From assembly GCA_041641305.1 (NCBI GenBank), contig JBEPYN010000002.1, positions 466,009 through 530,008 of the forward strand: a DNA stretch of 64,000 bases. Direction: 5' to 3'. Positions 55,490 through 57,260 of this stretch are shown in pieces. The notes beneath the pieces are model-generated. The model made no database searches and was not told the origin of the DNA. It worked only from the letters and a program-made list of their open reading frames with translations. Source of the stretch: Nitrososphaerota archaeon (GTDB taxonomy: Archaea > Thermoproteota > Nitrososphaeria_A > Caldarchaeales > Caldarchaeaceae). The position numbers were made by a program, and so were the translations under genes. Position 1 is the first letter of the stretch, and each line of letters opens with the position of its first letter.

Positions 55490-56431
55490 ATGAATAATGT
55501 GAGCAAGAAGGTCTTGGTGGCAGACTCTATTGACAAAGCGGCTGTTGATGTTCTCGAAGATGCGGGTTTCCAGGTTGATTTACGTCCAGGGATTTCCGCG
55601 GAGGAGCTTGAATCCGTGATAGGTGGCTATGATGTGTTGCTTGTCCGTGGGAGGACAAAGGTAACTGCGAAGGTTATTGAACGCGGTGTTCCCGTGTTGA
55701 AGGTTGTTGGCCGTGCTGGAGTTGGACTCGACAACGTTGACCTCGAGGCTGCGGCGCGGCATGGCGTCAAGGTGCTGAACACACCAGAGTCAACGACCGA
55801 AAGCGTTGCGGAGCTCGTCGTCGGGTTGATGATAGCCGTGGCCCGTAAAATCGCTTGGTGTGATAGACAGGTTCGCTCAGGTAAGTGGCCGAAGTCCGAG
55901 GCCATGGGCGTAGAACTGGCTGGGAAAACCCTCGGTGTTGTGGGCTATGGACGGATCGGGAGACGTGTCGCCGAGATAGCATATGCCATGGGGATGAAGG
56001 TTGTTGCCTACGACGTCATACCCATTCCGGAGGAGATTTTGGCAAAAGCCGGGGCCAGGCTCACAAGCCTCGAGGAAGTGCTGCAGACAGCAGATGTCAT
56101 AACCCTGCATGTACCTCTTACACCCGAGACAAGACACCTAATCGATGCAAGCAAACTGGAGATGATGAAGCCGACCGCCATACTCATAAACGCGTCACGT
56201 GGAGAGGTGATAGACGAGGAAGCACTCTACAACGCTCTCAAAGACGGTAGAATAGCGGGCGCGGGTCTCGATGTTTTCGAGAAAGAGCCACCCACCGGGA
56301 GCAAGCTTCTCACGCTCGACAATGTTGTGCTCACTCCGCACATAGGTGCTCAGACTCGGGAGGCTCAGGAGGCTGCTGCAACGATGCTGGCGAAAAAAGT
56401 TATCGAAGTGTTTGCTTCAATGAGTTCTTGA
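55490..56431 (+). CDS. D-isomer-specific 2-hydroxyacid dehydrogenase (D-3-phosphoglycerate dehydrogenase-like, short form)
   Basis: NAD-binding motif GVVGYGRIGRRVA. Catalytic RGEVIDE...HIGAQT region. 313 aa. Confidence 0.85.
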   Translation: MNNVSKKVLVADSIDKAAVDVLEDAGFQVDLRPGISAEELESVIGGYDVLLVRGRTKVTAKVIERGVPVLKVVGRAGVGLDNVDLEAAARHGVKVLNTPESTTESVAELVVGLMIAVARKIAWCDRQVRSGKWPKSEAMGVELAGKTLGVVGYGRIGRRVAEIAYAMGMKVVAYDVIPIPEEILAKAGARLTSLEEVLQTADVITLHVPLTPETRHLIDASKLEMMKPTAILINASRGEVIDEEALYNALKDGRIAGAGLDVFEKEPPTGSKLLTLDNVVLTPHIGAQTREAQEAAATMLAKKVIEVFASMSS

Positions 56432-57260
56432 CAAGCTTGAGCAGCTTCTCCGGATAAAGGCCGGACAAATCCTCCCTGTAAAAAACCACAATCTTTTCAT
56501 CATATCTCCTGTCCAGCTCCACCCCGGGGCCCAGCTCAACCCACACTCCTTCCTCGACAAATTTTCGGAATTTCTCCACCGCGTCCCCGCTCCTGAGAAT
56601 ATCTATGGGACAGTTTATGTACATGGGCCTCTTGTCGACGATGTGGCGGGTGGATTTGGGTGGCAGCCTGTAGGCATGTTTGGCGATTGAGACGACCTCC
56701 TCTTTCCTCAGAGGCCTCAGCAAGTATCCGAAGACGTGTCTGCCCCGTTTAACAACCTCTTCAACGTCACTGTCTCTGACATAGGTTATGCCAAGCGTTT
56801 TTAGTCTCTGCTCGAGCATGGAAAGTTTCCCGTAAACCTGCTCGGTGGCCAGAGTTTCTTGATGTTTGATTTTCAGGCTCTGTCCATTGCTCCAGATGAA
56901 CCAAGCGTCGTAGATGTCTCTTGACTCTGTGAAGCCCAGTTCGCTGCAATAATCCTTTAACTCATCGCTGGATATGTTCTTTGACGCAGCTCGCCCCCAT
57001 CCGGCGAGGACAACACGGGGAGACATGTAGTCGACTGTGTAGACGGGTATTTTTTCGAGGCCTAGAACCATAGCCGCCTCAACCCTGTGCGTGCCATCTA
57101 TAACCAGCCCGGTCTCAGCGTCGACTATCACGGGGTCTATGAAGCGGCCTTTTTTGGCGATGTCCTCGGCTATGCGGGAGACTGCTTGTGGAATGGATTG
57201 CTCATGTGGGTGAAGGTTTCCGGTGTCGGCGAGTGTGACCGTCCAAGGTTTTAGCCTCAA
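56400..57260 (-). CDS. ParB/Srx-fold protein (candidate ADP-dependent serine kinase SerK-like)
   Basis: N-terminal FIDPVIVDAETGLVIDGTHRVEAAMVLGLEKIPVYTV matches the ParB/sulfiredoxin nuclease-like fold (DGxHR). T. kodakarensis SerK belongs to this fold. A SerA-like dehydrogenase is adjacent. Confidence 0.55.
   Translation of the reverse strand: MRLKPWTVTLADTGNLHPHEQSIPQAVSRIAEDIAKKGRFIDPVIVDAETGLVIDGTHRVEAAMVLGLEKIPVYTVDYMSPRVVLAGWGRAASKNISSDELKDYCSELGFTESRDIYDAWFIWSNGQSLKIKHQETLATEQVYGKLSMLEQRLKTLGITYVRDSDVEEVVKRGRHVFGYLLRPLRKEEVVSIAKHAYRLPPKSTRHIVDKRPMYINCPIDILRSGDAVEKFRKFVEEGVWVELGPGVELDRRYDEKIVVFYREDLSGLYPEKLLKLVKNSLKQTLR

Follow-up and report, generated by a model that had tools for sequence, protein, structure and literature searches.

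To our knowledge, free-serine kinases are known from two narrow groups only: SerK from Thermococcales and Desulfurococcales, and SbnI from staphylococci. SerK, represented by TK0378 of T. kodakarensis (PDB 5X0B/5X0E; NCBIfam NF053625), carries the Pfam domains ParB_N and SerK_C, and its Glu30 is said to have been named the catalytic base by Nagata et al. in 2017. SbnI (PDB 5UJD/5UJE/6NR6; NF033589) is the staphyloferrin B free serine kinase and regulator, a bacterial protein encoded in a siderophore gene cluster. According to the SerK discovery paper, other archaea lack clear-cut homologs (PMC5120207). The GapMind 2026 preprint (10.1101/2024.10.14.618325) reports a structural resemblance between SbnI and the bacterial DUF1015 'SerBK' proteins, whose genes lie beside serA and serC, are found mostly where serB is missing and complement E. 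coli serB::kan. One SerK-like archaeal protein was reported to bind CTP rather than ATP (PMC12704722).

The locus studied here lies in a 64,000-nucleotide stretch of DNA (the window) from a hot-spring archaeon (Candidatus Caldarchaeum). A check of the open reading frames in the window gave a gene with a TTG start for a 286-aa protein (Table 1), and an identical 286-aa product was called by NCBI in GCA_038736885.1. The NCBI product name for this protein is 'ParB N-terminal domain-containing protein'.

Table 1. Coordinates of the putative kinase gene, the parts of its product and the neighbouring genes in the window
Feature	Coordinates	Strand	Basis or remark
Putative free L-serine kinase gene, SerK/SbnI-like, two-domain, 286 aa, TTG start	56400..57260	-	
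ParB/sulfiredoxin-fold N-terminal domain, residues 1-91	56988..57260	-	Structural matches to Srx, ParB and Noc over ~80 residues
P-H-E-Q motif, residues 18-21; E20 ~ SerK E30, H19 ~ SerK H29	57198..57209	-	Alignment to 5X0B
Motif VIDGTHRVEAAMVLG, residues 53-67; D55-G56-x-H58-R59 ~ SerK D69-G70-x-H72-R73	57060..57104	-	Invariant across all groups
Fast-evolving middle subdomain, residues 92-180; positional equivalent of Pfam SerK_C	56721..56987	-	Structural alignment
P-P-K-S-T-R-H motif of the C-terminal domain, residues 200-206; ~ SerK S-P-K221-T-T223-R224-H225	56643..56663	-	
C-terminal extension, residues 223-262, with invariant R251-x-Y253-x-E255 at 56496-56510	56475..56594	-	Present in SbnI, absent in archaeal SerK
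Two terminal helices, residues 263-286, Caldarchaeum-clade-specific	56403..56474	-	Alignment and model secondary structure
Short-type D-3-phosphoglycerate dehydrogenase-like gene, without ACT domain	55490..56431	+	Pfam 2-Hacid_dh and 2-Hacid_dh_C
Three co-directional genes upstream of the kinase gene, apparent operon	57257..60478	-	
FAH-family hydrolase gene	59513-60478	-	
HMGL-like/homocitrate-synthase-like gene	58306-59511	-	
Orphan 2-oxoacid dehydrogenase E1-alpha gene	57257-58333	-	

In a NCBIfam profile search, the only curated families matched by the 286-aa protein were SerK (NF053625, 62.5 bits, E=3.3e-17, model positions 16-243 of 244) and SbnI (NF033589, 32.1 bits, E=7e-8). Both scores fall below the curated cut-offs of these equivalog models, which are 380 bits and 350 bits; the authentic SerK P0213 reached 404.9 bits with the former. 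SerK, PF0380 and SbnI ranked first in a phmmer search of the PDB, with the SerK structures at E=2e-10 and the Spo0J ParB at E=0.92. A profile of the query's own family retrieved SerK at 1e-39 and SbnI at 2e-22 over its full length, and the identity of the protein to SerK and SbnI is about 20-22%. With the AF2 model (pLDDT 95.5), every one of the nine best Foldseek matches was a free serine kinase (E 1e-16 to 1e-13, best E=1.4e-16, about 237 columns); the matches that followed, at E>4e-4, cover the ParB-N part only. The protein has the two-domain SerK fold, a ParB/Srx N-domain joined to the SerK-specific C-domain, and its fold agrees with that of SbnI also in the C-terminal segment that follows the SerK core. 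The similarity to SerK is far beyond chance, and the proposal in the preliminary description that the protein is a possible SerK homolog is supported, well past the generic ParB fold, by profile, phmmer and Foldseek searches alike.

No Pfam family matched the protein at E<=0.01; at E<=10 there was a sub-threshold match to ParB_N alone (PF02195, 14.5 bits vs a cut-off of 26.3), and SerK_C (PF18231) gave no match even at E<=10. Among 67 proteins retrieved with a SerK-fragment query, 60 had both Pfam domains and the rest had one or neither. The middle subdomain of the query, at residues 92-180, shows 32% identity within the Caldarchaeum clade vs about 60% in the flanking parts. In a neighbour-joining tree, the 64 SerK sequences were monophyletic and excluded the query and all 169 sequences of its family, with 22-24% identity between the SerK group and the family. 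Judged by its sequence, the 286-aa protein is not a SerK ortholog and belongs to a separate clade. The SerK homology first suggested for it stands, but the score below the model cut-off, the lack of SerK_C and the separate clade set it apart from SerK orthologs.

The residues conserved in SerK were then compared across the query clade, 148 family representatives and 64 authentic SerK sequences. The DGxHR-type motif VIDGTHRVEAAMVLG is present as the preliminary description had reported, and SerK residues E30, D69, H72, R73, K221, T223, R224 and H225 are all kept, so that the catalytic Glu, DGxHR and K-x-T-R-H are conserved. The description named as grounds for refutation a resemblance to SerK limited to the generic ParB fold and missing SerK active-site residues, and neither was observed. 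In the 286-aa protein the two motifs read D55-G-T-H58-R59 and K202-S-T204-R205-H206, and residues H19/E20, D55, G56, H58, R59, Y78, W88, K186, K202, T204, R205 and H206 show little or no variation. E20 aligns with SerK E30 and is invariant in 233 of 233 aligned sequences from all groups. SerK E30 was replaced in the product-complex structures 5X0E and 5X0J, and alignments to 5X0B and to its E30Q and E30A variants differ solely at that position. The roles given to residues here are taken from PDB entry titles and variant sequences. SbnI differs in lacking K186, K202 and H206 of the query's family and reads 'PAGVTRF'. We place the protein in the free-serine-kinase superfamily, as a divergent relative of the two members characterised so far, SerK of archaea and SbnI of staphylococci.

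The N-terminal fold of about 80 residues is also common to the CTPase-fold clamps of canonical ParB, Noc and KorB and to sulfiredoxin, and the DGxHR-type motif of the query occupies the place of the nucleotide-binding box. The preliminary description had named, as an alternative, a ParB-like nuclease or DNA-binding protein outside metabolism, to which a sulfiredoxin may be added. Such a role would agree with the NCBI name, with the weak ParB_N matches, with a PADLOC match to a ParB-like methyltransferase segment, and with the NCBIfam name of SbnI, which describes it as a DNA-binding regulator as well. However, ParB, Noc and KorB match just these ~80 residues with low scores, and the rest of the protein matches SerK/SbnI only. 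Searches of the query for TIGR00180 (ParB), an HTH and an above-threshold ParB_N found none, no gene of ParA type occurs within 10 kb, and unlike canonical ParB the query has no dimerisation domain. The gene context is metabolic across phyla. Sulfiredoxin is a single domain of about 100-130 aa with its catalytic Cys in a G-C-H-R motif, whereas the query has 286 aa in two domains and D-G-T-H-R, with Thr57, as read from the sequence, at the Cys position; the Srx structural match spans 79 residues only. A partition protein, nuclease or sulfiredoxin was rejected on domain content, motif and context, and we regard a ParB-like role of this kind as highly improbable. A role in defence was rejected as well: the PADLOC hit is a weak one, in which residues 26-82 align with the ParB-like segment of a type II methyltransferase model, and three relatives gave no PADLOC match.

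The separate clade is a large archaeal family without a curated model. Its P-P-K-S-T-R-H motif by itself retrieved 193 relatives from species-representative genomes, so that members occur in at least 193 archaeal species, and the family comprises about 3,000 clusters at 50% identity. The clade spans Caldarchaeales, Nitrososphaeria, Bathyarchaeia, Thermofilaceae, Micrarchaeota and Asgard. The family has invariant charged residues of its own, D47, R90 and R211, where SerK has Ala57, Pro104 and Asn/Ile230, and these could reflect an altered substrate or donor specificity. It also differs from SerK in the R-x-Y-x-E C-terminal extension, which was absent in the 64 SerK sequences. We considered this extension as a feature unique to the family and rejected the idea, as it is common to SbnI: the family profile aligns to SbnI through 'MRCYTEKIYLIE'. 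The query's family thus carries the union of the SerK and SbnI motifs.

With regard to the gene neighbourhood, the adjacency to a D-3-phosphoglycerate-dehydrogenase (PGDH)-like gene noted earlier was confirmed; it is conserved among relatives and mirrors authentic SerK loci (PMC5120207). A convergent PGDH-like neighbour was found at 11 of 11 complete Caldarchaeum-clade loci and also in Pelearchaeum. In Calditenuaceae the kinase gene is followed by a class V aminotransferase gene, in six Micrarchaeota by an aminotransferase and then a PGDH-like gene, and in Thermofilaceae a phosphoglycerate mutase gene lies two genes downstream. Unbiased clustering of neighbours at 80 loci showed that only the dehydrogenase (22 loci) and the aminotransferase (21 loci) recur across phyla; about 36 of the 80 relatives have no partner gene within 6 kb. 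An authentic SerK-clade locus has the order Aminotran_5, 2-Hacid_dh, SerK, and the same dehydrogenase/aminotransferase linkage is reported for Desulfurococcales serK (PMC5120207), so that this neighbourhood is common to both families. At the archaeal locus there are no sbn genes. A tblastn search of the 64-kb window found no homolog of the class V aminotransferase, which is encoded elsewhere in the genome and adjoins the kinase gene in related lineages. As the family stands repeatedly beside phosphoserine-pathway genes, the protein most likely connects serine with central carbon metabolism. The same aminotransferase and dehydrogenase families would also serve a non-phosphorylated serine route.

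The product of the adjacent gene belongs to the D-2-hydroxyacid dehydrogenase family, and its top matches are phosphoglycerate dehydrogenases. It aligned with positions 1-302 of 525 of the PGDH model TIGR01327. The dehydrogenase is 55% identical to the one beside an authentic SerK-clade gene, and it is likely the pathway partner of the kinase. The two genes are convergent (tail-to-tail), with 3' ends overlapping by 32 nt, and are therefore adjacent but not co-transcribed.

This dehydrogenase bears directly on whether the enzyme could be a kinase of the same fold for another small hydroxy compound, of which D-glycerate, converted to 3- or 2-phosphoglycerate, would be the likeliest. In such a route an AGXT-type aminotransferase would turn serine into hydroxypyruvate, a hydroxypyruvate reductase would yield glycerate, and the kinase would complete the sequence. 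In line with it, the best-scoring models for the partner aminotransferases are of the AGXT/PhnW/aspartate-glyoxylate type and not canonical SerC, hydroxypyruvate and glyoxylate reductases belong to the same family as the dehydrogenase, phosphoglycerate mutase is found nearby in Thermofilaceae, and the invariant D47, R90 and R211 differ from SerK. However, the dehydrogenase fits PGDHs much better, with 374 bits for the curated PGDH model vs 269 bits for glyoxylate/hydroxypyruvate reductase; its best PDB matches are PGDHs (1WWK, 5.6e-91; 2EKL, 2e-76), while glyoxylate reductases reach 1e-64 (222 bits vs 308 for PGDH). Its close relative next to authentic SerK and the same class V aminotransferase type at the authentic SerK-clade locus also argue against glycerate, as do the residues conserved between SerK and the family, all of which are kept, and the use of L-serine by both characterised branches. 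We consider a glycerate kinase quite unlikely.

Taking into account what was observed, namely the homology, the fold, the retained residues and the conserved neighbourhood, we propose that the protein is probably a divergent free-serine kinase, which would transfer a phosphoryl group between a nucleotide and L-serine with the PGDH and a class V aminotransferase as pathway partners. The family is bracketed by two distant characterised branches, SerK and SbnI, both of which phosphorylate free L-serine, and by analogy its most likely function is a putative nucleotide-dependent interconversion of L-serine and O-phosphoserine. In this mechanism, the N-terminal ParB/Srx-fold domain would bind the nucleotide through D55-G-x-H58-R59, as in SerK and SbnI, and the C-terminal domain would supply K186 and K202-S-T204-R205-H206. 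E20 may serve as general base towards the hydroxyl of serine, and the phosphoryl group would pass between the nucleotide and free L-serine to give O-phospho-L-serine. Together with its partners, the enzyme would connect serine, phosphoserine, 3-phosphohydroxypyruvate and 3-phosphoglycerate in a reversible route. Several points weigh against this proposal: the low identity to SerK and SbnI, the scores below the curated SerK definitions, the family's own charged residues, the AGXT/PhnW-like rather than SerC-like aminotransferases, the roughly 36 of 80 relatives without a partner gene nearby, and the reported CTP binding of a SerK-like archaeal protein (PMC12704722).

The same chemistry might instead run in the biosynthetic direction, with the protein replacing a missing SerB by converting phosphoserine to serine with AMP or ADP as the phosphoryl acceptor. 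Autotrophs must synthesise serine, and the family occurs in lineages that include autotrophs. The bacterial DUF1015 'SerBK', whose ParB/SbnI-like fold is related to that of the query, has been proposed to act likewise (10.1101/2024.10.14.618325), and the linkage of the archaeal family to serA and the aminotransferase is analogous. DUF1015 is a different, bacterial sequence family with longer proteins, and PF06245 (DUF1015) gave no match to the query at E<=10. As an archaeal counterpart, the protein would act as a reversible phosphoserine:nucleotide phosphotransferase in place of SerB in many TACK, DPANN and Asgard archaea, a tentative idea that we hold to be unlikely; D47, R90, R211 and R-x-Y-x-E would then tune donor/acceptor use or reversibility, and serine biosynthesis would be completed with the phosphoryl group conserved rather than hydrolysed. 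The reverse kinase reaction, however, is thermodynamically unfavourable (K ~4e-4; 10.1101/2024.10.14.618325), the Micrarchaeota order of kinase, aminotransferase and dehydrogenase matches the catabolic sequence, and SerK of T. kodakarensis runs towards the consumption of serine (PMC5120207). Replacement of SerB in this direction is accordingly a doubtful prospect for the family.

If the predicted free-serine kinase activity is true, free-serine phosphorylation would be widespread among archaea. Serine would thereby gain a route to 3-phosphoglycerate, and phosphoserine could be fed into O-phosphoserine-dependent cysteine synthesis. The family is also a candidate answer for archaeal genomes without a recognisable SerB. 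Its recognition would correct a systematic annotation as 'ParB N-terminal domain-containing protein' or 'hypothetical', and it would offer a third, motif-rich branch for working out ADP vs ATP donor specificity in an unusual kinase fold.

In Caldarchaeum, four overlapping genes of one direction follow each other in the order FAH hydrolase, HMGL-like synthase, E1-alpha and the ParB-like gene, with the latter, the kinase gene, at the end. The overlaps within the block are 28 nt (HMGL-like/E1-alpha) and 4 nt (E1-alpha/kinase), the latter formed by the TTG start of the kinase and the stop of E1-alpha as TTGA. This 4-nt start/stop overlap suggests that the kinase gene may be translationally coupled to E1-alpha. 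Set against a serine kinase here is that the gene ends an operon unrelated to serine metabolism and is convergent with serA. E1-alpha subunits of eukaryotes are regulated by serine phosphorylation, and the protein might correspondingly phosphorylate an intermediate of the FAH/HMGL-like/E1-alpha pathway, or the orphan E1-alpha protein itself. The TTGA overlap, the retention of the four-gene block down to 37% kinase identity, and the lack of an E1-beta (Transket_pyr) gene for E1-alpha in the 64-kb window fit such a role. We nevertheless judge it very unlikely: T. kodakarensis SerK is inactive on serine within peptides (PMC5120207), and the block is confined to Caldarchaeum-clade genomes, whereas the association with the dehydrogenase and aminotransferase spans phyla.

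As the preliminary description of this locus had it, a ParB-like ORF is present; it lies on the minus strand, encodes 286 aa and carries the motif VIDGTHRVEAAMVLG at residues 53-67. NCBI named the identical product from a metagenome-assembled Candidatus Caldarchaeum sp. genome (GCA_038736885.1, contig JAVYMS010000004.1) "ParB N-terminal domain-containing protein". The gene starts with TTG, sharing TTGA with the stop codon that ends the E1-alpha gene upstream, and its homologs start at the equivalent position in the alignment. It is the last of four overlapping co-directional genes, after those for an FAH-family hydrolase, an HMGL-like/homocitrate-synthase-like protein and the 2-oxoacid dehydrogenase E1-alpha, and its translation is probably coupled to that of the E1-alpha operon. 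The D-2-hydroxyacid dehydrogenase gene described as its neighbour was also found, but the two do not form one operon: they are convergent, with their 3' ends overlapping by 32 nt. A 3' overlap of 11-32 nt with the PGDH-like gene is preserved in three relatives (loci L004, L005 and L006), and might couple expression through transcriptional interference or shared termination.

Coordinates of the kinase-like gene and other features in the window
Feature	Position	Strand	Remark
Second FAH-family paralog with aldehyde dehydrogenase gene	9640-12136		adjoining and divergent
SMC-ScpA-ScpB cluster	19354-23975		chromosome condensation
Glycosylation island	34000-46200		lower GC
Low-GC region	52000-56000		GC 0.45-0.47 vs 0.52-0.55 in flanks
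282-aa protein	52324-53172		no family match; inside low-GC region
SAM-methyltransferase + D-Ala-D-Ala-ligase-like ATP-grasp fusion	53513-55432		639 aa; inside low-GC region
D-2-hydroxyacid dehydrogenase gene	55490-56431	+	
Convergent 3'-end overlap	56400-56431		
Kinase-like (ParB-like) gene	56400-57260	-	
E1-alpha/HMGL-like/FAH operon	57257-60478	-	

A Pfam search of the kinase-like protein gave no matches above threshold, and its only two NCBIfam matches were both characterised free-serine kinases, SerK (E=3.3e-17, 62.5 bits, model positions 16-243 of 244) and staphylococcal SbnI (E=7e-8). In the PDB sequence ranking, T. kodakarensis SerK scored 2e-10, P. furiosus PF0380 1e-8 and SbnI 6e-4, while the canonical ParB Spo0J reached only E=0.92. 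A profile built from 54 family members aligned end to end with SerK/PF0380 (1e-39) and SbnI (2e-22). We then compared an AlphaFold2 model, made from 25 sequences (mean pLDDT 95.5, pTM 0.89), with the PDB by Foldseek. The top nine entries were free-serine kinases (E 1.4e-16 to 2.2e-13, 234-250 aligned columns, TM to target 0.64-0.79), followed at E>4e-4 by ParB-N domains, Noc, ParB and sulfiredoxin, whose good superposition was limited to about 80 residues. Therefore, the likeness covers the whole two-domain kinase, and the suspected similarity to SerK goes beyond the generic ParB/Srx fold. The other possibility raised earlier, a ParB-like nuclease or DNA-binding role, is unsupported, as the protein has no HTH and no ParA-type gene occurs within 10 kb. 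A sulfiredoxin role is likewise unsupported, with Thr at the sulfiredoxin Cys position.

We jointly aligned four groups: 13 sequences of the Caldarchaeum clade, to which the query belongs, 8 distant relatives, 148 family representatives and 64 SerK-clade sequences, the last retrieved with a query pieced together from SerK fragments in PDB alignments. Common to all four are H19/E20 (SerK H29/E30), P43 (P53), D55-G56-x-H58-R59 (D69-G70-x-H72-R73), Y78 (Y92), W88 (W102), K186 (K205) and K202-x-T204-R205-H206 (K221-x-T223-R224-H225), so that the SerK active-site residues are retained, including E20, DGxHR and K-x-T-R-H. SerK E30 is said to have been identified as the catalytic base by Nagata and colleagues in 2017. 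It is the residue mutated (E30A and E30Q) in the product-complex structures of SerK in the PDB. Invariants particular to the family are D47 (SerK Ala57), R90 (Pro104) and R211 (Asn/Ile230), and, unlike SerK, the family has a C-terminal extension with R251-x-Y253-x-E255. In the profile alignment, SbnI shares R211 and the R-x-Y-x-E segment ('MRCYTEKIYLIE') but lacks K186, K202 and H206. With both sets of motifs present, the family is thus a union of SerK and SbnI motifs. A tail at residues 263-286 occurs in the Caldarchaeum clade only.

Just 28 relatives were found by word-indexed search; an exhaustive profile search gave 2,980 cluster representatives at E<=1e-3, of which 335 reached E<=1e-30, with lengths of 260-300 aa and full-length matches, and the clusters sampled had no name or were called "hypothetical". 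Scanning species representatives (one genome per species) with the sole pattern [LF]PPKSTRHx[VI] yielded 193 confirmed relatives. Among the best 80 of these 193 loci, 79 carry an archaeal label, and the taxa comprise Caldarchaeales, Pelearchaeum, Calditenuaceae, Nitrososphaeria, Conexivisphaerales, Thermofilaceae, Bathyarchaeia, Micrarchaeota and one Asgard genome. The exception (L011, CAZDUB010000026.1) is a 2.7 kb contig labelled "uncultured Elusimicrobia sp."; its kinase, E1-alpha and HMGL-like genes are 78-95% identical to their Caldarchaeum counterparts, and it is almost certainly an archaeal contig in the wrong bin.

The 64 SerK sequences formed a monophyletic group in an NJ tree, with every family member outside, and identity between the two groups was 22-24%. 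Authentic SerK has the Pfam domains ParB_N and SerK_C, a pair that the query lacks. Homology to SerK, as first proposed, therefore stands on sequence, fold and residues, but the protein falls in a separate clade outside SerK as curated. Residues 92-180, the SerK_C-equivalent subdomain, evolve fastest (32% identity within the Caldarchaeum clade vs about 60% elsewhere), a concentration of divergence that points to relaxed or diversifying selection on this middle part of the protein. Across the same genomes (L012-L022), the kinase-like gene shows 45-50% identity and its four neighbours about 70-84%.

Within the Caldarchaeum clade, the FAH, HMGL-like, E1-alpha, kinase and convergent dehydrogenase genes occur together in 11/11 complete loci, even in a relative whose kinase is only 37% identical. 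For this clade alone, the protein might have a function connected with the E1-alpha operon. Pelearchaeum (32-35% identity) has lost the upstream operon and kept the convergent dehydrogenase, with a class V aminotransferase upstream. This aminotransferase directly follows the kinase gene in Calditenuaceae and related Nitrososphaerota. Among the Micrarchaeota loci listed, kinase, aminotransferase and dehydrogenase run in one direction in at least 6 species, and in others the aminotransferase lies within 2 kb of the kinase. Assumption-free clustering of every ORF lying up to 3.5 kb from the kinase gene, in the best 80 of 193 loci, returned the dehydrogenase (22/80) and the aminotransferase (21/80) as the two largest families and the only neighbours recurring across phyla.

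In Thermofilaceae, the kinase is followed by a 501-aa protein and archaeal phosphoglycerate mutase (ApgM) (L007 6829-9640; also L030, L034, L036, L038 and L070). The conserved 501-aa protein, with no family match beyond a weak ATP-cone (E=4.5e-4), may be a so far unrecognised component of the pathway. Relatives in Nitrososphaeria, Nitrososphaerales and Conexivisphaerales have the kinase homolog beside an ABC-transporter ATPase and permease pair, without serA or aminotransferase (L040-L044, L052, L053, L055, L061; L009 4217-6489), which may indicate that the kinase is connected with uptake there.

The window's dehydrogenase has no ACT domain. In the PDB it matches two short PGDHs best, 1WWK (5.6e-91) and 2EKL (2e-76); PGDHs from human and bacteria come next, and glyoxylate reductases rank lower (1e-64). 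Its NCBIfam score is 374 bits for the PGDH model (N-terminal 302 of 525 positions) vs 269 bits for glyoxylate reductase. The linked aminotransferases are class V, AGXT/PhnW-like and not canonical SerC, so that it is partly ambiguous whether the serine route is phosphorylated or not. An AGXT-type enzyme would also fit a glycerate kinase, but both the PGDH-like nature of the dehydrogenase and the presence of the same partners beside authentic SerK speak against that reading. In our positive control, an authentic SerK-clade gene (ParB_N + SerK_C) lies in the order Aminotran_5, 2-Hacid_dh, SerK; the dehydrogenase there is 55% identical to the window's, and the aminotransferase has 28-38% identity to its counterparts next to genes of the new family. 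Makino et al. describe matching linkage for Desulfurococcales serK (PMC5120207).

The data establish the homology, the fold, the retained residues and the conserved gene linkage; the substrate, what each residue does and the pathway are predictions. The best-supported prediction is that the protein is a nucleotide-dependent free L-serine kinase. Nucleotide binding would fall to its ParB/Srx domain, the closing C-domain would cover the substrate, and the general base would be E20. Acting with PGDH and the class V aminotransferase, the kinase would link serine with 3-phosphoglycerate by way of O-phosphoserine and 3-phosphohydroxypyruvate. Both ADP- and ATP-donor types exist in the serine-kinase superfamily, and for one SerK-like protein from an archaeon, CTP binding has been reported (PMC12704722). 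Bacterial DUF1015 proteins, whose genes adjoin serA and serC, were proposed to be SbnI-like kinases able to stand in for SerB (10.1101/2024.10.14.618325), which makes a comparable biosynthetic role, replacing SerB, a live alternative here.

The family has no model in Pfam-A or NCBIfam, its members are publicly annotated as ParB-like or hypothetical, and the literature searched contains no description of it. It is most aptly placed with the known free-serine kinases, as a third branch with a wide distribution and no new mechanism. Biochemical confirmation would mean that a pathway thought limited to a few hyperthermophiles reaches across much of the archaeal domain, and would bear on the missing-SerB problem.

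Several other features of the window were observed. The orphan E1-alpha (358 aa) has an intact GDG...NN thiamine-diphosphate motif and forms a tight operon with the HMGL-like and FAH genes, a block kept in 11 Caldarchaeum-clade species; no E1-beta, E2 or E3 was found across the 64-kb window. The second FAH-family paralog is 40% identical to the operon's. At the place next to serA occupied here by the low-GC region, related Caldarchaeum genomes have ribosomal protein S26e, M48 peptidase and ProRS, and an insertion or rearrangement is possible. The SMC cluster is 33 kb away from the ParB-fold gene, and the two are not linked. The glycosylation island holds several GT4 glycosyltransferases, a UDP-glucose dehydrogenase, epimerases and a nucleotidyl transferase.
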